NCBI GenBank assembly: GCA_965224025.1
Contig: OZ245033.1
Span: 1,792,001-1,856,000, forward strand
Reading direction: 5' to 3'
From: Candidatus Multivorans sp.
GTDB taxonomy: Bacteria > Acidobacteriota > Thermoanaerobaculia > Multivoradales > Multivoraceae
Length of the DNA stretch: 64,000 nucleotides
The position numbers and the translations under genes were made by a program. Positions 6,923 through 28,192 of this stretch are shown in pieces (position 1 is the first letter of the stretch; every line of letters begins with the position of its first letter). The notes under the pieces are model-generated. The model worked only from the letters and a program-made list of their open reading frames with translations. It had not been told where the DNA came from and did no database searches.

Positions 6923-9900
6923 ATGCCAGAAGCGCAGAGCGAAAACCCTACCGGAACCTCACCCGCGACCAAGCCTTCGCGGCCGGCGCGCCGCAAGCGG
7001 CGCAGCCGCCCGCGCGGCAGGGCCCGCAGCGGACGTACCGTTGCGCTCCATCAACGCAGTGCGTCCCACTTTCGGCCGGAAGATCGGGAAGAAGGACAGA
7101 CCGTCTTCTCGAAGGGAGGCCTCAAGCTGGAGATCGAAGGCGCAAGCGCCCGGATTCTGATCGCGCCGCCGCCCGCCGGCGACAGCGCCGCCAATTCCGA
7201 GCTGAACCCGAATGGCGCCGCCAACGTCGAGCTCGACTGGTCCAGGGTTCCGGACGAACGCATCCTCCATGCCGTCTGCGGCTGCGAACAGTTCGCTGCC
7301 GGCGCCGCCTGCGGCCACATCTGGGCATCGCTGCTGCAACTCGCCGCGAACGAACCGAAGAGCCAGCCGTCAGGATCCGGCCGAGTCTCGCTACGCAAGA
7401 CGCGACCGCCCCAGGTGTCCATCCCGGGATCGGCCCTGAACGCGGTGCAGCCCGCGAGCGACGGCCCGGCAGAGGCTCCCCGTCCGGTCCGCCGCTCGCG
7501 TCGAAGTCGCAACCGGCGGCGGCGAACCTCCGCAACAACGAGCTGGCGTTCTGTTGTGGAGACCGTGCGCGAGGACATCGAACGGCAGGCTCAGCCGAAA
7601 AAGGCGGCGACTCCGAGGAACGCCCCGCCTCAGATCCAGCTCCTGCTCAACGCCGCCACCAGCCGCAACGCAGGCGGCCTGATGATCGACATCTTCGGAC
7701 GCAAGCAGAACCCGCAGGGCGAGTTCGGCAAGTTGAAGCGGCTGAGCATCGACCACGGAAAACTGGAAGATCTGTTCGGGCTGACAACGGACGGCACTGC
7801 TCATTCGGCGGGGAACGGAGTACCACCCGGCGCCGGGCCGGCCATGGTCACCGCGCTTCCGCCCGAAGTGCCGGTCCGCGCCAGCCGCAAGCGCAAGGGC
7901 GGCCGCGGCGCCCGCAACACCGGCCGTCCCCTCGTGCAACGGGTCTACGTGCCCATGAACTGGATCGGCCCCCTGCTGCCGCGGCTGAGCGCGGAGGGAC
8001 ACCTGTACTGGTGGGACGGCCGCTCACTCGGCGATCCGCGCGCGGTCACGATCGACGACGGCGAACCCTGGCGCCTTGCCCTGCAGTTGGAACTCGCGGC
8101 AGCCAGCCGGGTCCGGCTGCGCGGCATGCTCAAGCGCGGCGACGAAACCGTACCGCTGAGTCGTGCCGCACTGGTCCTGCCCTTCCCAAACGGCGACGGA
8201 GCGACCGCCGATGCCGGGTCGGACCGGCAGGGCAACATGCTGCTCCTGCTCGACGACGCCATCGGCCGGTTCCATCTCGATCCGCAGCGAGATCAGCCTT
8301 GGTACGCGCTGCTCGGCAACAGCGGCGATCTCGTGATCCCGGATGAAGACCTCGAGGCCGCGGTCACCAGCCTGCTGGAACTGCCTTCGTTGCCGCCACT
8401 CGAACTCCCGCAAGAGGTCTATCTGTCGGAGGAATCGCCCGTCCCTCAACCTCGTCTTGCGCTCGAACCAGAGGACACTCCGGAGTGGATGAACCCTCAG
8501 CTCGAGGCCCGACTCTCGTTCGGCTACGGCGGCCTGACCGTCGACGCGGGCGATCCGCGGTCCGCAGTCGTCGACTGGGAGGAGCACCGCTTCGTTCGCC
8601 GCAACCTCAAGACGGAGCAGGATGCGCTCGTCAGGCTGCTCGAACTTGGTCTGAAGCCGGTTGCCTCGAAGAGCGGGCACAGCCTGGAACTCGAACCGCG
8701 TGACCTGCCGGCGGTCGCGGAGCCTCTGCTCCTCGAGGGCTGGGAGGTTGAAGCCCACGGCGCCTCGATCCGATCGCCCAGTCCGCCGGCACTACGTATC
8801 GAGAGCGGTGTCGACTGGTTCGAGCTCAGCGGGCAGATCGACTTCGACGGCGACCGGATCGAGTTCTCGGAGATCCTCGCCGCAATCTCGGACGGTCGCC
8901 GGTCCGTCGAACTGGATGACGGCGCCAAGGGACTGCTCCCCGCCGCCTGGGTCGAGAACTACGGCTCTCTGAGTCAACTGGCACAGGACTCGAGCGAAGA
9001 TGGTCTGCGCTTCCTTCCCTCCCAGGCGCTACTTGTGGACGCGCTGCTGGCGGTAACGCCGCCGGTCAACGTGAGCAAGACCTTCGCCGAGCTGCGCGAG
9101 AAGCTGAGCACATTCTCTTCGATCAACCCCAGGAAGGAACCCCGCAGCTTCGTCGGCACGCTCCGTAACTACCAACGGCTCGGTCTGGGGTGGCTCTGCT
9201 TCCTGCGCGAATTCGGCCTCGGCGGCGTGCTCGCCGACGACATGGGGCTGGGCAAGACGATCCAGGCGCTGGCCCTGCTGCGCACGTACCGCACCGCGTC
9301 GAAGACGACGAAGTTGCCGTATCTGGTCGTCGCGCCGCGCAGCCTCGTCTACAACTGGATCGACGAGGCCGCCCGCTTCACGCCCGATCTGAAGGTCCTC
9401 GAGTACGCCGGACGCGACCGCGAGAACCTCCGTGACGAGTTCAAGACTGCCGACCTCGTGGTCACGACCTACGGCACCGTCCGCCGCGACATCGGGCACC
9501 TGGCCACGGTCGAGTTCGACACAGTGATCCTGGACGAGGCCCAGGCGATCAAGAACGCGGGTTCGCAGACCGCCAAGGCCTGCCGCCTGCTGGGCGGCCA
9601 GAACCGTCTCGCTCTCACAGGCACGCCGATCGAGAACCACCTCGGCGAGCTGGGTTCGATCTTCGAGTTCCTCAACCCGGGGCTGCTCGGTCGACTGCCG
9701 GCGCTCGACGTGCTGGCCGGCGGCCGGGCGCCGAGCCAGCGCGAACTGGCCCTGGTCGCCAAGGGTCTGCGGCCGTTCATCCTCCGCCGCAGCAAGGAGC
9801 AGGTGCTGCCCGACCTGCCCGAGAAGACCGAGCAGATCCTTCAGTGCACCCTGAACCCGAAGCAGCAGGACCTCTACGACCAGCTCCGCGCGAGCTATCG

Positions 9901-10540
9901 CGACAGCCTGTTGAAGCAGGTCGAGGACAAGGGAGTCGCCGGATCGACGATGCAGGTGCTCGAAGCGCTGCTGCGGCTCCGCCAGGTGGCCTGCCACCCG
10001 GGCCTGATCGACGAGGAGTGGGAGGACGCCGGGAGCGCCAAGCTCGAGTCCCTGTTCGAGCAGGTCTCCGAAGTCCTCGACGAGGGGCACAAGTGCCTCG
10101 TCTTCTCCCAGTTCACATCGCTCCTGGCCTACGTCCGCCGTCACCTCGAGGAGCAGGGCGTGCCCTACGCCTACCTCGACGGCCAGACTCAGAACCGGGG
10201 CGAAGTCGTCGAGCACTTCCAGACCGATCCGGACACCAACATCTTCCTGATCAGCCTGAAGGCCGGCGGCGTCGGCCTCAACCTGACCGCGGCCGGCTAT
10301 GTATTCCTGCTCGACCCGTGGTGGAACCCGGCCGTCGAGGCTCAGGCCATCGACCGCACCCACCGCATCGGCCAGACGCATCCCGTGTTCGCCTACCGAC
10401 TGATCGCGCGCGACACCGTCGAAGAGAAGATGCTCGACCTGCAGCGCTCGAAGCGGAAAATCGCCGACGCGATCCTCGAAGGCGGCGGATCGTCCCTGCG
10501 CGATCTGACCGCTGACGATCTGCGGCTGCTGCTGAGCTAG
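6923..10540 (+). CDS. SWIM zinc-finger SNF2/SWI2-family helicase
   Basis: CGC…CGH SWIM motif; LADDMGLGKT, ILDEAQAIKN, LTGTPIEN, SLKAGGVGLNLT, QAIDRTHRIGQ. Confidence 0.95.
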   Translation: MPEAQSENPTGTSPATKPSRPARRKRRSRPRGRARSGRTVALHQRSASHFRPEDREEGQTVFSKGGLKLEIEGASARILIAPPPAGDSAANSELNPNGAANVELDWSRVPDERILHAVCGCEQFAAGAACGHIWASLLQLAANEPKSQPSGSGRVSLRKTRPPQVSIPGSALNAVQPASDGPAEAPRPVRRSRRSRNRRRRTSATTSWRSVVETVREDIERQAQPKKAATPRNAPPQIQLLLNAATSRNAGGLMIDIFGRKQNPQGEFGKLKRLSIDHGKLEDLFGLTTDGTAHSAGNGVPPGAGPAMVTALPPEVPVRASRKRKGGRGARNTGRPLVQRVYVPMNWIGPLLPRLSAEGHLYWWDGRSLGDPRAVTIDDGEPWRLALQLELAAASRVRLRGMLKRGDETVPLSRAALVLPFPNGDGATADAGSDRQGNMLLLLDDAIGRFHLDPQRDQPWYALLGNSGDLVIPDEDLEAAVTSLLELPSLPPLELPQEVYLSEESPVPQPRLALEPEDTPEWMNPQLEARLSFGYGGLTVDAGDPRSAVVDWEEHRFVRRNLKTEQDALVRLLELGLKPVASKSGHSLELEPRDLPAVAEPLLLEGWEVEAHGASIRSPSPPALRIESGVDWFELSGQIDFDGDRIEFSEILAAISDGRRSVELDDGAKGLLPAAWVENYGSLSQLAQDSSEDGLRFLPSQALLVDALLAVTPPVNVSKTFAELREKLSTFSSINPRKEPRSFVGTLRNYQRLGLGWLCFLREFGLGGVLADDMGLGKTIQALALLRTYRTASKTTKLPYLVVAPRSLVYNWIDEAARFTPDLKVLEYAGRDRENLRDEFKTADLVVTTYGTVRRDIGHLATVEFDTVILDEAQAIKNAGSQTAKACRLLGGQNRLALTGTPIENHLGELGSIFEFLNPGLLGRLPALDVLAGGRAPSQRELALVAKGLRPFILRRSKEQVLPDLPEKTEQILQCTLNPKQQDLYDQLRASYRDSLLKQVEDKGVAGSTMQVLEALLRLRQVACHPGLIDEEWEDAGSAKLESLFEQVSEVLDEGHKCLVFSQFTSLLAYVRRHLEEQGVPYAYLDGQTQNRGEVVEHFQTDPDTNIFLISLKAGGVGLNLTAAGYVFLLDPWWNPAVEAQAIDRTHRIGQTHPVFAYRLIARDTVEEKMLDLQRSKRKIADAILEGGGSSLRDLTADDLRLLLS

Positions 10541-10645: not shown

Positions 10646-10684
10646 GGCCTTCGGAACCCGAATCCGGGTTCCGAAGGCCTTTTT
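10646..10684 (+). terminator. Intrinsic terminator
   Basis: Perfect 15-bp stem GGCCTTCGGAACCCG/CGGGTTCCGAAGGCC followed by TTTTT, downstream of the SNF2 gene. Confidence 0.75.
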
Positions 10685-11059
10685 GCGTCTTAGTCAATGA
10701 ACGCAGCCGCTGAACCCGCGGCGCACAACTTCGACGCACAGCTCGACCCACACGTCCACAGGCCAGCCGACGACCGGCCGGCGCCGTCCCGAGAGAACGA
10801 TGACGCCTCTGAACTCCCCTCACAGCCCCCGCACACCGCTCCCGGACTCCCTCCCAAGCGAGCCGGACGCCTACACCAGCAGCGTCTTGAAACTTCGACT
10901 CGCTGAGCCTCCCACCCGGACCCTTGAAGCGCGCCTCGGGCACGCGCTCCAGATGCTCGGCGCCAGTTCAGCGCCGGTCATCTCCATGCTGCGCTTCCAG
11001 GCCCGCCCTCGCCCCTCGGCCCAGCGGCAAGCGAACCGCGGTCACCAGGGGCGCCGGCC

Positions 11060-11566
11060 ATGAACCGCCGCCGGCTCGCCATCGCGATCGTCGGTTTCGC
11101 CGTCATCGGCCCTATCGGCGCTTTGTTCTGGTTCGAGTCCAGGCTCGAAGCGAGACTGTCTCAGCGACCCGAAGTCGGTATGGTGTTCCCCGCCCTGCCG
11201 GGCCTCGCCGACGGCGAGTCCCTGCCGGCCTCTCCGGGCCGGCTTCGGGTCGTTACTTTCGCCAAGGCCGGCTGCGGCAACTGCGACCGCACGATCGCCA
11301 CGTTCCGGCGACTCGCGGTTGACGGCGAGCTCGACTTCGACCTGATCGCGGTCATCGCGGGCGCTGAAACGACCGAGCTCGACGACACGGCCACCCTGCG
11401 CCCGATCGCCGACCCGACCACTTCGATATCCAAGCGCTTCGGCGTGGTCCACGTACCGCTCGTCTTTCTGGTCGACGAGCACTCCCGGATCCGGGCCGTC
11501 ACAACCGGCGAACAGCCCGAGGCCGCCTGGCGCTCCTTTCTGGGAATCGAAACCGATGCGCTCTGA
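11060..11566 (+). CDS. Membrane-anchored thioredoxin-fold redoxin (TlpA/ResA-like)
   Basis: N-terminal RRR plus TM helix, CGNC motif, FGVVHVPLVFLVD cis-Pro strand. Confidence 0.85.
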   Translation: MNRRRLAIAIVGFAVIGPIGALFWFESRLEARLSQRPEVGMVFPALPGLADGESLPASPGRLRVVTFAKAGCGNCDRTIATFRRLAVDGELDFDLIAVIAGAETTELDDTATLRPIADPTTSISKRFGVVHVPLVFLVDEHSRIRAVTTGEQPEAAWRSFLGIETDAL

Positions 11567-11574
11567 TCCGTCTG

Positions 11575-12177
11575 ATGATGCGCTCTGATCCGTCTGATAA
11601 GGCCCGCCGTCGACGGTTGGCTGCCGCCGGGCTCATCTTCGCCACCGGCCTGATGGCGGTCGCAGTCCGCGCTGTCGGGCCCACCCTGGACCGCCTCGCC
11701 TGGGCAGCCTCCATCGACCCTTCGGCGCCGGGGCCCGGCCAGATCGTTCGACAACAAAAACGCTCCGATTGCGGCCCGGCCGCGCTCAAGATGATCCTCG
11801 ATCACCACGGCGTCGCCAGCGCCACGCTCGCCGAGCTGGAGGTCGCCACCGGCACAGGCCCGGACGGCACCAGCATGCTCGCCCTGAAGAAGACCGCCGA
11901 GCAACGCGGTCTCGCCAGCCAGGGACTCCGCCTGCCGGTTGAGCGGCTGTACGACATGCCGATGCCCGCGATCGCCCATGTCCACGGCGATCACTTCGTC
12001 GTCATTCGCAGCGCCGGCGAGGAACTGGTCATCGACGACCCGTCCCTGGGCCGCCTGCGCATGAGCACCAGGACCTTCGAACGTTCCTGGGACGGCGTCC
12101 TCCTGGCCTTCACCGGCGGTCCACCAACGTTTTCGCGGACGGAAAGAAACCCGTCCATTTCGCCCAGCAACCCTTAG
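11575..12177 (+). CDS. Stand-alone C39-family cysteine peptidase with N-terminal signal/anchor
   Basis: QQKRSDCGPAAL (Q, catalytic C), HFVVI (H), IDDPS (D), FERSWDG. No fused ABC domain. Starts RRRRLAAAGLIFATGLMAVAVRA. Confidence 0.92.
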   Translation: MMRSDPSDKARRRRLAAAGLIFATGLMAVAVRAVGPTLDRLAWAASIDPSAPGPGQIVRQQKRSDCGPAALKMILDHHGVASATLAELEVATGTGPDGTSMLALKKTAEQRGLASQGLRLPVERLYDMPMPAIAHVHGDHFVVIRSAGEELVIDDPSLGRLRMSTRTFERSWDGVLLAFTGGPPTFSRTERNPSISPSNP

Positions 12178-12318
12178 CCCCTCAAAGGGAGAACAACCAT
12201 CAACCACTCATCCAAACGCGCCGTCGGACCGATGACCGGCGCCAACTCTTCGACCGACCCGAACACCATGAACCACAACGCCCCCTTCACACACACAACA
12301 CCGAAAGGACGCCCCTCC

Positions 12319-12642
12319 ATGAAGATGCGTATCGCCCTCCTATCCGGACTTCTGACTCTCGCCGCCGGCGCCGCCCTGGCGATTCCGACGACACAGAGCG
12401 TGACGGCGGCCGACCAGGACCAGGACCAGGTCCCTACCGCCTGGGACGAACTCCTCACCCCATCCATCGTCGGCCCCACCCTCGAACCTGACGCCGTGGA
12501 ACTGGCCGTCTACGGCCCTTGCGGGTGCATTCCGATCCCTGGCTGCCCGTTCCCGATTCCTTTCCCGCGGCCATGGCCTCCGGGCGGCCCCATCTTCAAT
12601 CCGTTCCCGGTCCCGGGTCCCTGCGGCCCCTGCCCGTTCTAG
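12319..12642 (+). CDS. Secreted precursor-like peptide 1 with Pro/Cys-rich tail
   Basis: RBS GAAAGGA; signal peptide MKMRIALLSGLLTLAAGAALA; acidic linker; tail PCGCIPIPGC…GPCGPCPF. Confidence 0.75.
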   Translation: MKMRIALLSGLLTLAAGAALAIPTTQSVTAADQDQDQVPTAWDELLTPSIVGPTLEPDAVELAVYGPCGCIPIPGCPFPIPFPRPWPPGGPIFNPFPVPGPCGPCPF

Positions 12643-12693
12643 CTGCCCGTGCTCGCCCTACATTCCACAAGCACCACGAAGGACATTCACTCA

Positions 12694-13023
12694 ATGATCA
12701 GACTCGCATCGATTGTTGTCAGCCTCTCGCTTCTTGCGGGAGCTTCAGCCTCTGCCGCGCCGCTGGCGCTCGAGACTTCCACCACCACGCCCCAAACAAG
12801 TGACTTCGCTATCGAGAGCGCCTTTCCACTCGCGATGAACGAGCTGGCTCAACTGACGGGAGGCGCACCTGACTGGGTCGTGGCGGGTTGCCTCGCTGTC
12901 GGTGGCTTCGGCGGTGGGCGCGCTCTTGCACTGAGGCTGGCGAAACGCGTCGTGGTTGGCGTTGTATGCCCTTGGTGCGGGACGGCGCTGATCGTTGTCG
13001 GAATAGGCTGTCTTCTCATGTAG
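12694..13023 (+). CDS. Bacteriocin-like precursor 2 (signal peptide + double-Gly leader + hydrophobic core)
   Basis: RBS GAAGGA; signal peptide ending ASASA; LAMNELAQLTGG motif; 52-aa core with 4 Cys. Confidence 0.8.
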   Translation: MIRLASIVVSLSLLAGASASAAPLALETSTTTPQTSDFAIESAFPLAMNELAQLTGGAPDWVVAGCLAVGGFGGGRALALRLAKRVVVGVVCPWCGTALIVVGIGCLLM

Positions 13024-13108
13024 AACCGTCGCCGCAATCCGTGTGAAAGCGAATCCCTCGGTACAAAGGACCATCAGACTCAGAACAAGCTCAAGAAAGG
13101 AAGTGACC

Positions 13109-13405
13109 ATGAAGACACCGATCGTCTTCTTCGTTCTCGCCGCCGTTACTCTGGCTCCACTGACAGGGCCATTCACCGCAACAGTGCTCGACTCCGTGTC
13201 ACCCCCGCAATCGGCAGACACAATGCGGCCCATTTCTGACCAGACCGCGGAGGCAATCCGAGGTGCGCTGGCGTGGAAGTGGAAGTGCGCGATCGTCGCG
13301 GCCTCAGTAGGAGCCGGCCTGTTCGCAGCCGCTTTCGTGACCGCCGGGGGTGCCGCGATAGCTGCACCCTTCCTGCTGAACGCCGCAGCGTTCTGCCTCA
13401 TCTGA
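13109..13405 (+). CDS. Bacteriocin-like precursor 3 (signal peptide + GA-type leader + hydrophobic core)
   Basis: RBS GAAAGGA; hydrophobic N-terminus; ISDQTAEAIRGA motif; 45-aa Ala/Gly-rich core with 2 Cys. Confidence 0.78.
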   Translation: MKTPIVFFVLAAVTLAPLTGPFTATVLDSVSPPQSADTMRPISDQTAEAIRGALAWKWKCAIVAASVGAGLFAAAFVTAGGAAIAAPFLLNAAAFCLI

Positions 13406-13520
13406 ACGAACGGGACGCGTGCTAGCTCCGTGAACACTCGGCGATGGTCCGAGCGACCATCTCCTCCAACCGGGTAGTCTGCACCAGACCCGTACAAGCC
13501 GCACAAACCAGGGAGGCGCG

Positions 13521-15143
13521 ATGGCGACAACAGGAACAACAATGACCTCGATCCGTAGCATCCGGGCTCTGGCCGGGACCTATTGGACCGTCCACACCCG
13601 GGCGCTGCGGACGGACCGGTCGATGGTTCTCCTGATCTTGATGGCTCTGCCGAGCACCGCCGTCGCGCTCTTCCTCTCCGTCTTCTTGCCGCATCTGATC
13701 TTCGGCGTGGAAGACCCCGCGCTGCGCGGCGGACTGCTCACCGTCGCGCTTTCTCTGGTGGCCGCAATCTGGCTCTTCGTGCAGGTCTTCAGCCAGCAGT
13801 CCATCAGTTGGCTGCTCGATATCCGGCCGCTCATCACGCTTCCGTTCGGGTTCGGCACGCTCTATCGACTACGCCTCGCCGGCTATCTGGCCGGTGCGTG
13901 GCTGCTGGCTCTTGGCCTGGCCGGGCCGTACTTTGCCGTCGTCCGGTCAACCAGCGTGGTCGGCTTTGCCGCGTTGACCGCAGGCATCTGCCTGGCAGTG
14001 GTGATTCAGGGCCAGATCGTGTCCATCGTGTCGTGGCAACGGGACCGGCTGGTCGAGGGAATCATGGGCTCCCTGGTCGTGCTCGTCGTCATCTGCGCGA
14101 TGTACTACGGACTCTACTGGGGGGTTCTACTGAAGGCAGGCGAGATCCGTGGCGACGACATCCTGGGATGGGTGCGGAACTCCACCCTGGTCCGAGCCGC
14201 CGCCTGGACGCCGGCCGGATTGCTGGCCGGCATGCTGAACGACCCCGGCGGCTGGTGGGAGAACGGAATTCGCGTCCTGGGTTTGTGTACTTATGCCGTC
14301 CTCATCGGTATCTGCGACCGGGAGTTGCTGCGCAGATCGGGATTCGGCCCCGCCCCGAGTACACCCCGCGTCAAGCATCCCACCCTGCCGTTGCCGACAC
14401 TGCTGCGCCGGTGGCCCGCCTTGTCGCCGGGAGGCGTCCTGACATTGATCGAGATCGAATGCGGCGCCAGGGACCGTGGCCTCCGCTGGTCAATGATCAT
14501 CGCCCTCGCCCTTTTCCTCTTTCTCACAGTCGTCATCGGAACTCCGGTAGTCGCCGTCGTTGGTTCCCTGACGCTTGCATGCACGTTGCTGACATCCCAC
14601 CGTGCCGGGCGCCTCTTGCCCACCTGTCGTCTCTGGTCCGAGTCGTTCGCCCTCCCCGTTACCCTCATCGGGGCTCTACGTGCCATGGGCCAGGCCTCCA
14701 GCCTCGTCGCGATCGGTTTCGCTTGCGCAGCCCTCGCGGCATCCTTCGTTCGCTTCGGCTGGTTCGGCTGGCTCCACGTCGGCTATATCGTCCTCCATTC
14801 TTCCGCCGCGATCTTCTTTGCCGACGCGGCCTACGGGTGGTTCGACGCGCGCTGGCAGGCACCTGTCGGAACAGAGGGAACGGACCATCGCGCAGGGAAG
14901 ATCCTGGCCCAAAACATGTTGGGGCTTAGTCTCCTTCTCCCCTTTGTCCTCGTCCTCTTTCTCTTTACGGTCAATGAAGGAACTCCGGGGCGTCTGGCGC
15001 TCAGCATCCTCCTTTCGATCTACGTCGTCCTCGCCGTCACGGCAGGGTTGGCCTTCCGGGCATCGCAACGCCGTTTGGTCGCTTCCAAGGGCCTCGACGC
15101 GCTCCTGGTGCGGAACTCCACGGTGTCAGATTGTCCCAGTTGA
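13521..15143 (+). CDS. Multi-TM putative ABC exporter permease
   Basis: 540 aa with about 12 hydrophobic helices; LLDIRPLITLPFGFGTLYRLRL and AAWTPAGL motifs; ABC ATPase downstream. Confidence 0.7.
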   Translation: MATTGTTMTSIRSIRALAGTYWTVHTRALRTDRSMVLLILMALPSTAVALFLSVFLPHLIFGVEDPALRGGLLTVALSLVAAIWLFVQVFSQQSISWLLDIRPLITLPFGFGTLYRLRLAGYLAGAWLLALGLAGPYFAVVRSTSVVGFAALTAGICLAVVIQGQIVSIVSWQRDRLVEGIMGSLVVLVVICAMYYGLYWGVLLKAGEIRGDDILGWVRNSTLVRAAAWTPAGLLAGMLNDPGGWWENGIRVLGLCTYAVLIGICDRELLRRSGFGPAPSTPRVKHPTLPLPTLLRRWPALSPGGVLTLIEIECGARDRGLRWSMIIALALFLFLTVVIGTPVVAVVGSLTLACTLLTSHRAGRLLPTCRLWSESFALPVTLIGALRAMGQASSLVAIGFACAALAASFVRFGWFGWLHVGYIVLHSSAAIFFADAAYGWFDARWQAPVGTEGTDHRAGKILAQNMLGLSLLLPFVLVLFLFTVNEGTPGRLALSILLSIYVVLAVTAGLAFRASQRRLVASKGLDALLVRNSTVSDCPS

Positions 15144-15204
15144 ACCGCTGCAACGCCAAGCTGGTTCACTCACCCAAGAGGAGCGGGCCAGAATGTGCAA
15201 GTAC

Positions 15205-15395
15205 GTTTGACGGGCGCCATACGGGCGGGGTAGCGTCCGTCTGTTGGTCGTCAGAGGCGCAGTGGGCCTGCGAGCCGGACCCCCTGCCAGACCTAGCCGT
15301 CGCCCCTGGGCTTAGGGTCGCTCCCTTCGTCAGGCGAGTCTGCGGGGGGTCTCGTTTGCCCTGTGCAGTGCGGCCGATTCGGCCCGCCACCAGTC
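15205..15395 (+). promoter_or_regulatory. Sigma70-like promoter plus conserved leader, copy 1
   Basis: TTGACG-N18-TAGCGT followed by GTTGGTCGTCAG…GTGGGCCTGCGAGCCGG..CCCCTGC; homologous to 18489-18680. Confidence 0.5.
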
Positions 15396-15448
15396 CAGGT
15401 GCCGGCCCACCTTCCCCCAAAGCCGGCTAGAGCGACTCCAAGGACTCG

Positions 15449-16727
15449 ATGGCGACCTTCACGAACCCGAGCAGCCGGGCGGACCTGCTGCTGACCCTTG
15501 CGCGGCTGTCGTTCCCGGACGCCGTACGGCGGGCCAACCAGCCCGTGGCGGTGGCGATCCTGATCGCCGTTCTGTTTCTGGTGTTCGCGACCGTCGCCAC
15601 ATTCGGCCTTCTGCCCGTTCTGTTCACCCTAGAGAGCGACGCCCTGCAGCGCAATCTGCTGAACCTGATGGCCTGCTCCGCTACGGCGTTCGGGCTGCTC
15701 GCCCAGGTGGCACTCCGAGCACCGACCACGTGGCTGCTCGATCTGGACGACCTGCTGCGGCTGCCGGTGGGTTTCCGAGACCTGTACGGTCTCCGTTTCG
15801 CTCTGAGTACGATGGGGTACTGGCTCCTTGTTCTCGGTCCCGCAGGCGCCTATCTCACGGTCATGAGGTCGGGAGGGATCGCCGGAGTACCCGTCACGTT
15901 GCTGGGCATCGTGAGCCTGGTCTGGATCTTCGGCCGTGTGGTTGCGGTCTTGTCGCTCTTCGCCGACCGTTGGGTCGAAAGTGCGCTCACCATACTGGCC
16001 ATGATGATGATCATGGCGCTCTGCCAGTTTGCGATCCTCGTCGGCGTAATGGCCTTCGGAGGAGAGCTCGATTCCGAAGGGGTCGCTCGGGCAATCGAAG
16101 GTTCTTCAGCTCTCGGCGGCCTCGGCTACACGCCGCCGGGACTTGTCGCCGGAATCGTCCACGAACCGGGCTGGTCGGCGTCGAATCTGGCGAGACTCGG
16201 AAGTCTGTTTGCCGCTCTCGGCGTCTTGATCGTGCTGGAGAACCGGCTCCTTCTTCGCAGCTACCTCGATCATCCCGGTGGTGACCGCCGCGCCGCTTCT
16301 GGAGTACTGCCTCTGGCGCGGATGCTCCGCGGGTCGCGCCGCCTCAGTTCCTTGGGCGTTCTCACGGTGCTCGAGACGGAATGCCTGTTGCGTGCCCAAG
16401 AGGATACCGGCGACCATCAGGCAGGACGCGACGAGGAAGAACGGCCAGCCGAACCAGTCGAGCGGCGCGAAGTTCGGGGCCTCCCTTCTGGTTCCGCAGC
16501 TGGCCCTTGGCCCAGCCTTCCTCACCTTCCTTCTGTACGTGCTCTACGACGGGCAGCGCGTCAGCCCACTCACTGCCGGCCTCATCGCCGCCGCGGTCCT
16601 CCTCCTCGCTGCCGTTGCCGCATACGCCTCGCCCCGGCGGCAGGAACGCGTGCTCAAGGCGCGCGGACGCGAACTCCTGCTCGAAGACCCCGCCGAAGAC
16701 CCTCCGAAGCTACCGAGCCCCTCCTGA
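15449..16727 (+). pseudogene. Second permease paralogue with internal deletion/frameshift at ~16395
   Basis: Aligns with 13521-15143 (LLDLDDLLRLPVGFRDLYGLRF; LGYTPPGL; VLTVLETEC). The C-terminus is in another frame and roughly 120 aa are missing relative to the paralogue. Confidence 0.7.
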
Positions 16728-16758
16728 CCACTCACAACCACGAGGAACTCCGAAACTC

Positions 16759-17547
16759 ATGGAAGCAATCAAGGCAGACAACCTGACTCGGTCCTTCGGC
16801 GGCAACGTCGTCGTCGACAGCGTGGATCTCGACGTCCAGGAGGGTCAGATCCTGGGGTTCGTCGGTCCCAACGGGGCGGGCAAGACGACGACCTGGTCGA
16901 TGCTGACCGGGCTGCTCAAGCCCACGAGCGGCACGGTCCGCCTGCTGGGCAAACCGGTCGACGTGAACGACACGGAGCTCAAGCAGCAGCTCGGCATCGT
17001 GCCGGACCAGAGCATCCTCTTCGAGAGCTTGACCGGAGAGGAGTTGCTGCTGTCGTACGCCCGCATCTACGGCCTGAGCCGCGAAGACGCCGGGCAACGA
17101 ACAGACGAGGCGCTCGCCGTTTTCGACCTCGAGGAGGCCGCCAAGCGACCGATCACCACCTACTCCCACGGTATGAGAAAGAAGATTCGCCTCGCTGCGG
17201 CGACCCTGCACGCGCCGCGAGTTCTGTTTCTCGACGAGCCGTTCGAGGGCATGGACGCCCTCAGCGCGCGCACCGTCATGTCGATCCTGCAGCAGATGGC
17301 CGAGCAGGACGGCGTCGCCGTGTTCCTGACGTCCCACATGCTCGACTACGTCGAACGCGTGTCGAGCCATATCGCCGTCATCCGGGACGGCAAGGTGCTC
17401 CTGTCCTGCTCCCGGGAGGAGTTCCGCGAGCTGCCCGACGCCGAGGGAGAAGACGGCGCCGGTCGGCTCGAGAACCTCATTCTCAGTATCTCCAGACGCG
17501 AGAGGTTCTCCCGCCTCTCGTGGATCGGCAACAGGAGCAAGACATGA
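16759..17547 (+). CDS. ABC transporter ATP-binding protein (ABC-2 type)
   Basis: GPNGAGKTT Walker A, YSHGMRKK signature variant, LFLDEPFEGMD Walker B, TSH switch. Confidence 0.95.
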   Translation: MEAIKADNLTRSFGGNVVVDSVDLDVQEGQILGFVGPNGAGKTTTWSMLTGLLKPTSGTVRLLGKPVDVNDTELKQQLGIVPDQSILFESLTGEELLLSYARIYGLSREDAGQRTDEALAVFDLEEAAKRPITTYSHGMRKKIRLAAATLHAPRVLFLDEPFEGMDALSARTVMSILQQMAEQDGVAVFLTSHMLDYVERVSSHIAVIRDGKVLLSCSREEFRELPDAEGEDGAGRLENLILSISRRERFSRLSWIGNRSKT

Positions 17548-18323
17548 CCGAGCCTTTCCAAGACACCGACGGCCTGCGCCGGACCGGGCCGACCGGAGAC
17601 CAGCCGCAGGACCGCGGAGGTTGGCCTAGCGCCTTGATCGGGATCGTCACCTCGCCGCGAACGAGCTTCGAGATCGTGCGCCGGAGGGCACCCTGCCTCG
17701 GTGTTGTCGTCCTCCTCCAGGCCAGCGCCGTCTGCCTTGCACTGCTGTCGTCATCGTTCGGCCTCCAGGTGCGGCGTGCCCAACTCACTGAGATGATGCC
17801 GGGACAGCCGGACCAGGTCGAAGCCTTGATGGCCCAGGCGGAGCAGTCGATGGCTGTGACGCGATCGATCGCGGCCGGCGGCGCCGCTCTCCTGACGGCT
17901 ATCGTCTTGCTCGTGCAGGCCGTGTTCGTCTGGCTCCTGGCGATTGCGTTCCAGGGCCGCCCGCGGTTCGGACAAGCCCTCTCGCTGATGGCGCACGTCG
18001 GCGTGATCGCCCTCCTCAGGAACTGGGCCAACTTTGGCCTCCTCCACTTTCGGGACCTGAGTGCGATCCGATCGCCGCGGGACCTGCAGGTCCCAATGGG
18101 AATCGACCTCTTCCTGGCAGGAGACAGTGCCGCGCTCAACGCGGTCTGGGCAAGCATCAACCCGTTCACGATCTGGCTCCTCGCACTGCTTGGCCTGGGC
18201 GCCGCGGCGGTCCTCGGTCTGTCGCAAAGGCAGGGTTTCACGCTCGCCGGCATCTACTGGGCGGCGACGACCACGCTCTCCGCGGCAGCGGCAGGCGTGG
18301 CTAGCCGCCTCACGCCCGGGTAG
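17544..18323 (+). CDS. Yip1-domain membrane protein
   Basis: IVTSPRTSFEIV…, about 5 TMs, INPFTIW motif; ATGA overlap with the ATPase stop. Confidence 0.85.
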   Translation: MTEPFQDTDGLRRTGPTGDQPQDRGGWPSALIGIVTSPRTSFEIVRRRAPCLGVVVLLQASAVCLALLSSSFGLQVRRAQLTEMMPGQPDQVEALMAQAEQSMAVTRSIAAGGAALLTAIVLLVQAVFVWLLAIAFQGRPRFGQALSLMAHVGVIALLRNWANFGLLHFRDLSAIRSPRDLQVPMGIDLFLAGDSAALNAVWASINPFTIWLLALLGLGAAAVLGLSQRQGFTLAGIYWAATTTLSAAAAGVASRLTPG

Positions 18324-19424: not shown

Positions 19425-19859
19425 CTATCGGCCCGGCGGCTCGGTCGCGTCGCGACCGTCGCGCGGCGCACCGGTACCGGACGAGCCCATGAACAGCTTG
19501 CGACCGTCGGGGAAGGTCAGGTCACGGCCGTTCGCCTTGTTCGAACCGTCCTTCGCCTGATAGCCGTCGACCACGATCTCGGTGCCAGGCAGAAGCGACT
19601 TCTTTGAGAAGCCCCGGCGCGCCAGCGTGTTCGGCGTACCGCCCTCGACCATCCAGACTGTCGATGAGCCGTCGTCGTTCGTGACCTCGAGGTGAATCCA
19701 GGCGTGGGGGTTGATCCACTCCATCTTGGTCACCGTGCCGCGCAACTGAAGCGGCCGGTCGGCATCGAACTCGGCCGAGAAGGCGTGGTGCGCGGCGACG
19801 GGCATGGCGAGCACCAGGGCCACGCCAGCGGCCAGTAGAGCAATTCGCTTGAACTTCAT
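19425..19859 (-). CDS. DUF6152 family protein
   Basis: Signal peptide, then AHHAFSAEFD…GTVTKMEWINPHAWI. Confidence 0.85.
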   Translation of the reverse strand: MKFKRIALLAAGVALVLAMPVAAHHAFSAEFDADRPLQLRGTVTKMEWINPHAWIHLEVTNDDGSSTVWMVEGGTPNTLARRGFSKKSLLPGTEIVVDGYQAKDGSNKANGRDLTFPDGRKLFMGSSGTGAPRDGRDATEPPGR

Positions 19860-26169: not shown

Positions 26170-27690
26170 GGGAGCCGAAGGCGACGCGACAGCCTGAACG
26201 TCGCACTGTTCTGCGTCGTAAGCCAGTCGCCGTCGAAGAAACCACCCCGGAAGGTCAGGTTGTCGTACCAGAAAGCCCGCTTGCCGCTGGTCGAGAATCC
26301 ACCGGCGTAGCCCTGGTTCTCATACAGGCCCACCGGGACCACGATGTCGGAGGCGATCTCGAACGGCTCGAACAACTGCTCCTTGGTCCAGCGGGGGCCG
26401 AACCAGAGGAACTCGCCACTCTCCGTCGCGAAACCGAGCGGAGAAAGGGCTACGCTCTGACTCTCCAGACGGCCGTCGCTGCTCCGTTCGAAGCGTTGGA
26501 CACCGAAGTCGGACCACCAGCTCAGCAGCCCCCTCTTCTCGATCCGGGGACGCCATTCCAGGCGAGGGTAGAACATCCGGAAGTCGCGGCGCAGGAGGAA
26601 GCCGACGGTGGGATCGAAGTCTGGCTGCACCTCGACGTAGTCGGCCGAAGCGGTGAGTTCCGGCCCCTGGTACAGGAATCCCGCGCCCCGGGTCTCGTTG
26701 CCTTCCTCCTCTCCGACGCCGAGTCCCAGATCGCTCTCAGCCCAGAACCCGAGAACTCGATACGCTGCGTCGGCTTGAGGTCGAAGTCGAGACCGTAGAG
26801 CCGTTCACCGGCCAGCCCCTCCCGGTCCCGGTGCGTGAAGCTGCCGCCGATCGTCGACCGCTCGCCGATGTTCCTGGTCACCCGAGCCATGCCGTAGGTG
26901 GCGCCCGGTACGGCAGCCTCGCCGTTCTCCCTCTCCGGGAGACCGGCCGTGCCGATTCCGAGCATGCCGAGGTTCCAGCCCCCGGCTCGTCCGGTCAGGC
27001 GGACGCCGCAATCGATCGGCACCGTGCGGCCGCCTTCGAGCCCGATTCGGCGGGAGAAGAACGGCTTCATCAGCGGCTGCCCCCAGCCCACGCGCGGACG
27101 CGGCCCGAAGTCGAAAACGCCCGCGTTCTCGAGGAAGAAGTCCCGCTTCTCGGGAAAGAACAGGGAGAACCGGGTCAGATTCACCTGCTGGTCGTCGACT
27201 TCCACTTCGGCGAAGTCCGTGTTGTAGGTCAGATCCAGCACCAGGGAGCGGGTCAGCCCCCACTTCAGGTCGAGACCGCCGTCAAGGTCGTCGGCGCTGT
27301 CTCCTCGAACCCGATCGTCGTTACGACCGCCTACGGCGTATGGCTTCACGTCAAGTTGACGCGAGGGCCGCAGATCGCGCAGGCCCTTCAGTTCCCCTGC
27401 CAGAGAAACGCGGTAAACGGCATTCTGGCCGAACTGGGACAGATCGCTGTTGATGCTGGCCTCGAGCGGCAGCGGCACGCAGTGCGTCTCCTCGTTCCTG
27501 CGCCGGACCATCCGCTGCACGTTCAGACTCCACACGTCGCTCCGAGGGTCGAAACGCAGCGTCGAGACCGGTATCGCGATCTCCGCCACCCAGCCCTGCC
27601 CCGTCCGCCGCGCCGCGACATCCCACACTCCGTCCCAAGCCCAGTTCACATCTCTGCCCTCGTCGGTGAGCAGAGCGTCCCAACTCGCGT
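26170..27690 (-). pseudogene. DUF5916 protein fragment, frameshifted and truncated at both ends
   Basis: WDGVWDVAA…WVAEIAIP..TLRF, NTDFAEVEVDDQQVNLTRFSLFFPEKRDFFLE, FFSRRIGL; frame break at ~26750. Confidence 0.75.
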
Positions 27691-28192
27691 TCAGGTCGTC
27701 GAGCTTGAGCAGGACGACGGCGACAAGACGCCCGAGGAGGATCACGCATGCGAGTGCCGCCGGCACGGCCACGGCAAAGCCCAGGACGCCGGCTGTGCGC
27801 GTCAAGAGAAGGTAGAGCAGCGATGGCCCGAACAAAGGGAGCCACAAGCCGGACAACCCGGCGCCGACCCGTAGCGCCTAAAGCGCCCGAAACTGCACCG
27901 GCAGCGGCAACAAGCGCCGAACGTCGAAAACCCGGGACATCTCGAAGCGCATCACGACCGCTGCAACGACCCAGAACAGCACCGCGATCGCGGCCAGCAG
28001 GTTCAGAGTGTTCCGCCGCAGCAGGTCGTCATCCAGTTCGAAGGTCGCTGCCGTGGCCCCGACCAGGAGCACGCCGAGAAGAAGAAGGGCGCCGCCCATG
28101 AGGAGCTTCCCAAAGCGCTCCTTTCTGCCCCGCCGCCAGTTGTCCCGCAGAATGGTCGGCATCAACGCCCGGCAATCGCTCAGCGTGCCCAT
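27691..28192 (-). pseudogene. Third paralogue of the 13.5/15.4 kb permeases, N-terminal fragment with in-frame TAG
   Basis: VFDVRRLLPLPVQFRAL*ALRVGAGLSGLWLPLFGP…LTRTAG aligns with LLDLDDLLRLPVGFRDLYGLRFALSTMGYWLLVLGP…VMRSGG. Confidence 0.65.

Follow-up and report, generated by a model that had tools for sequence, protein, structure and literature searches.

A putative operon for the periplasmic maturation of double-glycine peptides in Candidatus Multivorans (Acidobacteriota)

Peptides with double-glycine leaders, such as the class II bacteriocins and class II microcins, are known as the cargo of the PCAT/AMS transporters (ComA, LagD, CvaB, PCAT1, LahT), which employ a C39 protease with Q/C/H/D residues, recognize a leader of hydrophobic positions followed by GG or GA, and handle small Gly/Ala-rich hydrophobic peptides that are often disulfide-bonded and often occur in pairs. 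A stand-alone C39 peptidase that is exported and active in the periplasm is known from the Pseudomonas Fap functional-amyloid system, where FapD is needed for fibre secretion, although its substrate is unclear and the Fap proteins lack canonical GG leaders (PMC5557850). In Bacillus, the SDP toxin (SdpC), a short hydrophobic peptide of 42 residues with one disulfide, is counteracted in the producer by YknWXYZ, an ABC transporter that needs the Yip1-family protein YknW (PMC4887032). The PmtABCD exporter of phenol-soluble modulins and the LanFEG-type lantibiotic protection transporters are ABC-2-type systems that handle amphipathic or hydrophobic peptides and protect the producer, and the initial annotation further named the thiol-disulfide oxidoreductases BdbA/BdbB, which accompany sublancin.

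Here we examined an operon in a window of 64,000 nucleotides (the whole stretch of DNA that was analysed; contig OZ245033.1, assembly GCA_965224025.1), which seems to make small disulfide-closed, bacteriocin-like peptide pairs by an undescribed route, in which the peptides leave the cell interior by the ordinary secretion signal and only then lose a classical double-glycine leader to a free-standing, membrane-anchored protease. All nine genes are co-oriented on the + strand and follow a hairpin terminator. The features are as follows.

10648..10686 (+), an intrinsic terminator-like GC-rich hairpin plus T-run, closing the upstream SNF2-family helicase gene that ends at 10540
11060..11566 (+), a membrane-anchored thioredoxin-fold redoxin with a CGNC motif (TlpA/AhpC-TSA-like)
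11575..12177 (+), a stand-alone C39 cysteine peptidase with an N-terminal basic stretch and one hydrophobic anchor
12319..12642 (+), pepA, a signal peptide plus a Pro/Cys-rich secreted peptide with no GG motif, type T3
12694..13023 (+), pepB, a Sec-like signal, spacer, AMNELAQLTGG leader motif and a core of about 52 aa with 4 Cys, type T7
13109..13405 (+), pepC, a Sec-like signal, spacer, ISDQTAEAIRGA leader motif and a 45-aa core with Cys7 and Cys43, type T6
13521..15143 (+), TM1, a predicted single-chain, roughly 12-helix, ABC-2 (type V)-like permease
15449..16727 (+), TM2, a paralogous permease that is disrupted here
16759..17547 (+), an ABC ATPase of the DrrA/ABC-2 type
17520..18323 (+), a Yip1/YknW-like polytopic membrane protein, with a likely start at the ATG at 17544, which overlaps the ABC stop codon

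The terminator was read directly from the sequence (GGCCTTCGGAACCCG..CGGGTTCCGAAGGCC TTTTT), while a pattern scan did not list it; the helicase was assigned by Pfam hits. The redoxin has an N-terminal hydrophobic anchor and a single CGNC motif at residue 72, and CGNC is kept in 41 of 43 genus/family orthologues. Its Pfam Redoxin match is weak (3.5e-5, below the cut-off), but the ORF in the same position in distant loci scores 2.8e-13 to 7.5e-22 for AhpC-TSA/Redoxin. The peptidase matches Peptidase_C39 at 2.4e-31, its residues Q60, C66, H140 and D155 are invariant in 16 stand-alone homologues, and its open frame of 269 aa leaves no room for an ABC fusion. In 16 of 16 stand-alone homologues a short basic N-terminus is followed by a single hydrophobic stretch of 17-27 residues, which is the layout of a signal or signal-anchor, so that the protease domain is predicted to face the periplasm. 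This prediction is heuristic, and as the residues after the anchor also hold 1-5 K and R, the positive-inside rule alone does not decide the orientation.

The three small ORFs (inner ATG starts 12319, 12694 and 13109) are each preceded by a strong ribosome-binding site, GAAAGGA, GAAGGA or AAAGGAAG. The initial annotation described the precursors as double-Gly peptides, but only pepB and pepC carry such a motif. pepA has none, and is found as the first ORF after C39 in 22 of 22 genus loci plus the window (23 ORFs), in three types (T3, T4, T5) that assort independently of the GG pairs. Residues E50, L54, G56, C66, C92, C95 and C106 of pepB are invariant in an alignment. The internal Met of the window's pepC is not conserved in any of the 5 orthologues, so the long signal-bearing form is the conserved product. 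Among the small ORFs in genus/family loci, 107 of 116 pass all four signal-peptide heuristics, namely a basic n-region, no acidic residue in the first eight, an uncharged stretch of at least 12 residues, and an AxA-like site. A leader-type motif, such as LSDEELAAVSGG, LDDQELASVTGG or AMNELAQLTGG (overall LSxxELxxIxGG-like), is carried by 54 of 79 small ORFs, followed by a Gly/Ala-rich core of 41-56 aa with one Cys near each end. Of these, 43 cores have 2 Cys and 6 have 4 Cys, with the first Cys at core position 4-9 and the last 0-5 residues from the end; the 5 cores with a single Cys are mis-cuts of our pattern.

TM1 is intact. A 533-aa form in the public protein collection, on a contig as long as contig C1 of this genome, is 100% identical over 99% of the query, and TM1 probably starts seven codons later. 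An AF2 model of TM1 (pLDDT 80.3) was compared with known structures, and 15 of the 16 best VIA-align rows are ABC-2/ABCG/ABCA/Wzm/PmtCD-type membrane domains (Z 9.0-12.1), including PmtCD (Z 11.0, rmsd 4.1, 191 residues aligned). The second of the two paralogous multi-TM genes, listed in the initial annotation without a defect, is broken. According to tblastn of the intact orthologue and contigs of public runs, aa 318-400 are missing, a piece of about 90 nt is inverted at 16385-16474, and the frame changes. The ATPase (ABC_tran 6.7e-30; drrA subfamily 4.9e-65, below its cut-off) is the most conserved gene of the operon, with 90-98% identity in 35 genus/family loci and 78-84% in two outliers (L110 and L113). 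The last protein matches Pfam Yip1 at 1.5e-9 and NCBIfam YknW_fam at 2.3e-19 (69.7 bits against a cut-off of 110).

The operon is present in 24 of 24 genomes searched in the genus, whose relatives are titled Candidatus Multivorans, as judged by the C39. The full order through ABC and Yip1 is seen in 21 of 22 fetched genus loci and in 35 of 39 genus/family loci from the public genome collection; of the other four, three are cut short by contig ends and one carries an insertion. In all 22 fetched loci 3-4 small ORFs follow C39, and at least two such ORFs follow it in 37 of the 39 public loci, the other two being cut by contig ends. Interestingly, the GG peptides occur as fixed, exchangeable pairs, T1+T2 in 25 loci, T7/T11+T6 in 6 and T8+T10 in 3. 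pepB, pepC and TM1 travel together as one cassette, as TM1 is present in 5 of 5 other loci with the T7/T6 pair and in none of the rest, and the closest relatives, with C39 92-94% identical, carry a different pair.

The core set (redoxin, C39, signal+GG peptide, Yip1, often with ABC) recurs beyond the genus in MAGs titled Ignavibacteria/Bacteroidota, Gemmatimonadota, Poribacteria and Aminicenantia. A strict signal+GG+two-Cys filter finds a peptide in 14 of 19 loci from other phyla, and three more are visible by eye. The filter hits at 0.74 per kb just downstream of C39 against 0.008 per kb elsewhere in the same loci, about 90 times the background density, which is far more than chance. In 31 unique out-of-genus loci a redoxin lies directly upstream of C39 in 18, a Yip1 gene is present beside it in 18, and ABC in 13, and one locus from another lineage (L130) has the identical six-gene order. 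The permease family, in contrast, is very small by direct search, with 29 representatives among 1.84 billion proteins, and its profile found a match in only 7 of the 31 distant loci.

Compared with the PCAT/AMS systems, the C39 here is a separate 200-aa protein with an N-terminal anchor, and the leader lies behind a Sec signal instead of at the N-terminus. No PCAT, membrane-fusion protein or TolC-type gene belongs to the system; the genome has no PCAT, and its only two Peptidase_C39 hits are both stand-alone. In a quick tree, 39 of 40 stand-alone C39s with the peptide context lie apart from all 25 PCAT domains sampled from the same phylum, although the deep split has only 76% SH-aLRT support. 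FapD and FilB are the nearest named stand-alone C39 families in NCBIfam (3.4e-13 and 9e-6), but the window C39 scores 49.4 bits against the FapD cut-off of 330 and 25.2 against the FilB cut-off of 475; unlike the Fap system, the inferred substrates here are evident and canonical, and no FapF-type pore is present. YknYZ is a MacB-type pump with a membrane-fusion protein, whereas the permease here is predicted to be ABC-2-like with about 12 helices and no fusion protein is present, and SDP is processed by SdpAB rather than by a C39. The ATPase matches the PmtA and lantibiotic-protection models at 3.5e-32 and 5.3e-41, both below their cut-offs, but TM1 appears to be a single-chain pseudo-dimer of about 540 aa with no detectable sequence family, and its function is inferred from fold and gene context only. 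No Pfam or NCBIfam family fits the peptides or the permeases, and full-text literature searches found no description of this cluster type.

We favour, with moderate confidence and from sequence comparison alone, a maturation and self-protection system for small, hydrophobic, disulfide-closed peptides of the class II bacteriocin or microcin kind that works outside the cytoplasm, which supports the proposal of the initial annotation that the precursors go out via Sec, are oxidised by the redoxin and trimmed by C39 in the periplasm, with ABC/Yip1 handling release or immunity, although the direction of the redoxin (oxidase or reductase) is open. In this reading, pepB and pepC are exported through Sec, and the anchored C39 cuts after the GG or GA to release cores of about 45-52 residues. 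A disulfide between the Cys a few residues from the new N-terminus and the Cys a few residues from the C-terminus would then close a helix-turn-helix hairpin (the pepC model is of low confidence, pLDDT 60), a step that the redoxin either catalyses or proof-reads. The ABC-2 transporter and the YknW-like Yip1 protein would pull the peptides out of the producer's inner membrane, serving immunity, expulsion or both. The peptides are proposed to act in pairs, like two-peptide bacteriocins, and to be exchanged between species as cassettes, with pepA in an accessory role that is unexplained. Antibacterial activity is pure inference.

It is also possible, though in our view unlikely, that the same route makes signalling peptides, or small membrane-embedded or envelope components that the ABC/Yip1 machinery places or recycles. 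The locus sits in the same place in every species of the genus with a highly conserved ATPase, which looks like core-genome machinery and also fits a housekeeping envelope function; pepA is conserved in every locus, and no outer-membrane channel, membrane-fusion protein or other release device is encoded in the cluster. However, the swapping of peptide pairs between close relatives together with a dedicated permease is the pattern of toxin and immunity cassettes, GC content drops over the peptide genes, the cores look like Gly/Ala-rich two-peptide bacteriocins, and the Yip1+ABC precedent is toxin protection. A Fap- or Fil-like fibre system, in which the C39 would process secreted subunits that polymerise into amyloid or pilus-like fibres, appears very unlikely. 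The periplasmic location of FapD and the Gly/Ala-rich cores would suit it, but the family scores are far below the cut-offs, no FapF-like barrel, usher or repeat-bearing subunit is in the cluster, and the cores are only 41-56 residues long with terminal Cys pairs and canonical GG leaders. Equally improbable is that the hydrophobic N-termini are not translated or are not export signals, with the C39 acting in the cytoplasm like an excised PCAT domain. The inner Met of the window's pepC, 15 residues before the GA, would give a textbook leader, but it is absent in 5 of 5 orthologues, strong ribosome-binding sites precede the upstream ATG, signal features are kept in most of the ORFs, the C39 and the redoxin both start with a basic stretch plus a hydrophobic anchor, and no PCAT or other exporter for leader-bearing peptides is in the genome.

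The role of the redoxin is less certain, and a tentative alternative for this one step, compatible with the rest of the model, is that it keeps the single catalytic cysteine of the periplasmic C39 reduced while the general Dsb system makes the peptide disulfides. The C39 has exactly one Cys (C66), and redoxin and C39 are adjacent and co-oriented in 43 of 43 genus/family loci. The window redoxin has CGNC and not a CxHC motif, and belongs to the TlpA/AhpC fold, whose best-known members are probably reductants. The genome also has 3 DSBA-family hits and a DsbD/CcdA-type protein, so that a dedicated oxidase is not obviously needed. On the other hand, FapD seems to work in the periplasm without a dedicated redoxin (PMC5557850), and distant redoxins carry CPHC, CSHC, CIHC or CGHC, where CxHC would be the motif of oxidases and isomerases such as DsbA and PDI.

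The window lies in a 5.14-Mb genome with about 67% GC, and its closest public relatives are MAGs titled Candidatus Multivorans, Thermoanaerobaculia or Acidobacteriota. An SNF2-family helicase gene ends at 10540 and is followed by a hairpin with a T-run at 10648-10686. Nine genes then follow on the + strand, the three small ORFs each having their best start at an inner ATG behind a GAAAGGA-type ribosome-binding site:
11060-11566 (+), redoxin, a weak Pfam match in this genome
11575-12177 (+), stand-alone C39 peptidase
12319-12642 (+), pepA, small ORF starting at the inner ATG at 12319
12694 (+, start), pepB, small ORF
13109 (+, start), pepC, small ORF
13521-15143 (+), TM1, permease
15449-16727 (+), TM2, second permease, disrupted
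16759-17547 (+), ABC ATPase
17520-18323 (+), Yip1 protein

The gene set of the initial annotation is thus confirmed, and its interpretation as a bacteriocin-like system with Sec-exported double-glycine precursors and a periplasmic C39 peptidase is supported, with two corrections. pepA carries a signal peptide but no double-glycine motif, and its mature part is Pro/Cys-rich. The second of the two paralogous multi-TM genes, TM2, is broken in this genome: residues 1-317 of the intact orthologue align in one frame, residues 401-430 are encoded on the opposite strand at 16474-16385 (an inverted piece of about 90 nt), residues 441-529 align in another frame, and residues 318-400 are missing. Contigs of two public runs from one sample reproduce the TM2 arrangement of the window exactly, while a contig about 94% alike, from another study, carries the small piece in the other orientation with extra sequence, which is the intact form, in a relative. 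In one genus genome (loci L051 and L108), a 242-aa transposase-like ORF is inserted in the peptide region and the TM2 gene is split in two pieces about 1.4 kb apart.

The C39 protein matches Pfam Peptidase_C39 (PF03412) well above the curated cut-off (108.8 bits against 22, E = 2.4e-31). In an alignment of 16 stand-alone homologues, the catalytic Cys and His and the Gln and Asp of the oxyanion hole and triad (Q60, C66, H140, and D155) are invariant, and C66 is the only cysteine of the protein. It is not a peptidase-containing ABC transporter (PCAT), since the open frame is 269 aa, the protein 200 aa, and the next genes are small peptides. The genome holds only two Peptidase_C39 hits, both stand-alone, and so has no PCAT. 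The protein also falls far short of the equivalog cut-off of the FapD family (NCBIfam NF058616, 49.4 bits against 330) and of the cut-off of the FilB pilus-system C39 (NCBIfam NF050078, 25.2 bits against 475). All 16 homologues begin with a short basic stretch and a single hydrophobic segment of 17 to 27 residues, which is the layout of a signal or signal-anchor and would put the protease in the periplasm; the flank after the anchor also holds basic residues, so that this location remains a prediction. A Tat-type export signal (RRKxxAAAGL in several homologues) is not general, as the homologue of L130, a locus from outside the genus, has no RR. A complex prediction of the C39 domain (residues 48-190) with the pepB leader region (residues 30-72) gave no verdict, with a score of 0.35 against a control at 0.24. 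One metagenome protein (P0091) among the stand-alone homologues continues at its C-terminus into a sequence that looks like a double-glycine peptide (..ELTQGG LSWGCW..), which is either a gene fusion or a missed stop or frameshift between the C39 and its substrate gene.

The redoxin has the same kind of N-terminal anchor, with a CGNC motif in 41 of 43 genus/family loci, although the window protein itself scores below the Pfam cut-off (24.1 bits against 26.6, E = 3.5e-5). The genome has three DSBA-family hits and one DsbD/CcdA-type hit, and no VKOR. Among the remaining genes, the ATPase matches ABC_tran (6.7e-30) and is placed by NCBIfam with DrrA/ABC-2-type ATPases (drrA subfamily 4.9e-65, below its cut-off). 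The last protein of the operon matches Pfam Yip1 (PF04893, 1.5e-9, 38.4 bits against 28.6) and lies near the YknW family (NCBIfam NF052650), but below that family's cut-off (69.7 bits against 110).

Small ORFs after C39 were extracted from the window and from 22 loci of the same genus, together with the paralogous loci. Of the 82 ORFs found, three were dropped (a 242-aa transposase-like ORF and two without peptide features), and of the 79 kept, 54 are of the double-glycine (GG) type, 23 are of the pepA type, and 2 are atypical. A GG-type precursor is composed of a basic n-region and hydrophobic h-region with an AxA-like site, a variable spacer, a motif that matches the classical double-glycine leader, for example LSDEELAAVSGG, LDDQELASVTGG, AMNELAQLTGG (pepB) or ISDQTAEAIRGA (pepC), and a Gly/Ala-rich core with a median of 43 residues. 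Forty-three cores have two Cys and six have four, while the five cores with one Cys are mis-cuts of our pattern. The first Cys lies at core position 4 to 9 and the last lies 0 to 5 residues from the C-terminus, and one disulfide would therefore tie the two ends of the core together. In the wider set of 116 small ORFs from 38 genus/family loci, 107 pass all four of our signal-peptide heuristics. In the window, pepC has an inner Met that could give a textbook 15-residue leader, but none of its five orthologues has it, so the signal-bearing form is the conserved product. GC content by codon position could not show whether the signal parts are coding; GC3 is lower over the peptide genes (0.55-0.82) than over the flanking genes (0.78-0.88), which fits exchanged cassettes but proves nothing.

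No Pfam or NCBIfam family matches pepA, pepB, pepC or the common peptide types of relatives, with nothing at E up to 5 for the window peptides; one distant peptide (from locus L134) scores 0.13 on Bacteriocin_IIc. The AF2 model of the pepC precursor is of low confidence (mean pLDDT = 60, pTM = 0.39), and only its outline of a signal helix, a disordered spacer and a helix-turn-helix core can be used, as a lead. pepA (for example ..ELAVYGPCGCIPIPGCPFPIPFP..GPCGPCPF) is the first ORF after C39 in all genus loci, is conserved in every locus in three types, and shows no obvious cleavage motif.

TM1 has no Pfam or NCBIfam family, and direct search found only 29 relatives among 1.84 billion representative proteins. 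The ESM Atlas gave only leads (12TM_1, ABC_export or ABC_tran_2 on 10-21% of cluster members). The AF2 model (pLDDT = 80.3, pTM = 0.77) is all-helical, and Foldseek against the PDB found no match at E ≤ 0.001. In the exhaustive structural comparison, 15 of the 16 best rows are ABC-2-type membrane domains (ABCH, ABCA, NosY, PmtCD, CcmB, ABCG, KpsM, Wzm, Mce permease), with Z from 9.0 to 12.1. Each half of TM1 matches one such domain, and a fused 12-helix mycobacterial pump aligns over 366 residues. However, these Z values are in a range where helical bundles can match by arrangement alone, and TM1 is therefore called ABC-2-like rather than a proven member.

The C39 is found in 24 of 24 other genomes of the genus at 71-85% identity. 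In the 16 genomes of other families of the same order, the hits sit in long, PCAT-like open frames of 739-1051 aa, apart from one weak hit in a 380-aa frame, and three of these genomes have no hit. The order redoxin, C39, pepA, 2-3 GG peptides, 1-3 permeases, ABC, Yip1 is seen in 21 of 22 fetched genus loci, the 22nd carrying an insertion and running off the fetched stretch. Of 39 genus/family loci from the public collection, 35 show ABC and Yip1, the other four being cut by contig ends or by the same insertion. Single-linkage clustering lumped all GG peptides together, but with a 55% identity threshold the cores fall into types that occur as fixed pairs: T1+T2 in 25 loci, T7(T11)+T6 in 6 including the window, and T8+T10 in 3, with a third peptide, T9, added in 5 loci. 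The three pepA types combine freely with these pairs. TM1, at 64% identity or more, is present in all 5 other loci that have the T7/T6 pair and in none of the others, and the two closest relatives (C39 94% and 92% identical) carry T1+T2 and no TM1. So pepB-pepC-TM1 is a mobile three-gene cassette inside a fixed operon, which is the behavior expected of toxin genes with a cognate protection gene; this linkage is the only evidence that speaks to immunity. As related genomes are not independent samples, these are given as counts and not as statistics.

A second, reduced copy lies elsewhere in this genome (contig C1, 3369946-3370470; positions 9476-10504, − strand, of the fetched locus L003), where a stand-alone C39 53% identical lies next to one 100-aa ORF with a signal, an ELADITGRG motif and two Cys, between transposase-like ORFs and with no redoxin, ABC or Yip1 beside it. 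Fuller second clusters (redoxin-C39-peptides-permease-Yip1-ABC) exist in relatives (loci L055, L057, and L058).

Among 401 genomes of the phylum, 85 have a C39 hit, a tally that includes one genome flagged unpublished (G189), from which nothing else was taken. Most hits are PCAT-length, but several are short open frames. Fourteen such loci were fetched, and the public genome collection gave 19 more, from MAGs titled Ignavibacteria/Bacteroidota, Gemmatimonadota, Planctomycetota, Poribacteria, Aminicenantia and others; two are duplicates, which leaves 31 unique loci. A strict filter (60-140 aa, a basic n-region and a hydrophobic stretch, a GG motif, and a core of 20-70 aa with at least 2 Cys) finds a hit within 1 kb downstream of C39 in 14 of the 19 public loci, that is, 0.74 per kb against 4 hits in 488 kb elsewhere in the same loci. 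Three more are visible by eye. Profiles built from our alignments find, among the 31 unique loci, a redoxin directly upstream of C39 in 18, Yip1 in 18, an ABC ATPase in 13, and a TM1-like permease in 7. Several loci are cut short by contig ends, and five (L069, L071, L072, L073, and L129) show none of these partners. Pfam confirms AhpC-TSA/Redoxin for five of the upstream ORFs, one of them weakly, and Yip1 for two downstream ORFs. The distant redoxins carry CPHC, CSHC, CIHC or CGHC. Long open frames in L066 and L067 suggested a redoxin-C39 fusion, but the two hits lie in different frames and are adjacent genes. Interestingly, locus L130 has the identical order redoxin, C39, peptide, 523-aa permease, ABC, Yip1, while in the Bacteroidota-type loci the set is redoxin, C39, peptide, Yip1, without a nearby ABC. 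The conserved core is thus four genes, and Yip1 is a steadier partner than the pump.

In a quick maximum-likelihood tree of 75 C39 domains, 39 of the 40 stand-alone domains with this gene context lie on one side and all 25 PCAT domains from the same phylum on the other, together with 9 of the 10 stand-alone domains without the context. The deep split has only 76% SH-aLRT support, and because the context label was assigned from the profile results above, the grouping is partly defined by what it shows.

From the parts, their order and conservation, the tandem signal-plus-leader design, the paired Cys, the cassette linkage and the absence of a PCAT, we infer that the precursors are exported through Sec, that the periplasmic C39 cleaves them after GG or GA, and that the core is closed by an end-to-end disulfide made or checked by the redoxin, although the redoxin could instead keep the lone catalytic Cys of the C39 reduced. 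The ABC-2-like pump with Yip1 would remove the peptides from the producer's membrane, as immunity, expulsion or both, and the peptides would act in pairs against competitors. We consider the processing steps likely and the antibacterial role about as likely as not, which makes the scheme as a whole somewhat more probable than not.

In this reading the system works like a class II bacteriocin or class II microcin system. pepB and pepC carry a double-glycine leader of that kind, but the leader is not at the extreme N-terminus of the precursor, as it follows a Sec-like signal and a spacer, and there is no dedicated PCAT; two defining features of that kind are therefore missing. The nearest stand-alone C39 is FapD, which was shown to be periplasmic and catalytically required in a study noting that Fap proteins lack canonical C39 sites and that this class of C39 is uncharacterized (PMC5557850). 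The nearest Yip1 precedent is YknWXYZ, which protects Bacillus against SDP, a 42-residue toxin with one disulfide (PMC4887032). A 2012 survey of polymorphic toxins mentions only C39-like toxin domains (PMC3482391), and a 2011 cyanobacterial survey treats only transporter-fused C39 (PMC3140520). Full-text searches, which did not reach most subscription journals or any supplements, found no paper that describes a Sec signal in front of a GG leader with a periplasmic C39, or this gene set, so a description elsewhere cannot be excluded.

Double-glycine leaders are taught as cytoplasmic export tags that are removed by the transporter itself, and a conserved system in which the same leader sits behind a Sec signal and meets its protease only in the periplasm would separate leader recognition from transport. 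More tentatively, and with slightly less than even likelihood, this would be a third, phylum-spanning route to class II-type bacteriocins in double-membrane bacteria, beside PCAT/type I secretion and plain Sec export, in which a dedicated anchored C39 and thioredoxin pair matures the precursors in the periplasm into two-peptide toxins closed end to end by a disulfide. A Yip1 protein would be the universal partner, with or without an ABC-2 pump whose permease is swapped together with the peptide pair. The system would also supply the first clear natural substrates for the uncharacterized class of periplasmic C39 peptidases, and would open a large, unmined pool of disulfide-closed peptide pairs in uncultured Acidobacteriota, Ignavibacteria/Bacteroidota, Gemmatimonadota and others, in clusters that genome-mining tools looking for PCATs or N-terminal leaders would miss.

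Just downstream of the operon, on the other strand, lies a gene for a secreted DUF6152 protein (19425-19859, − strand, 4.7e-34), for which no link to the operon was seen. About 10 kb from the operon (26522-28042, − strand), a fragment like residues 59-173 of the TM2 permease, with one in-frame stop, runs into a 444-aa ORF whose remainder did not match the permease queries, and it looks like the remnant of another permease copy.
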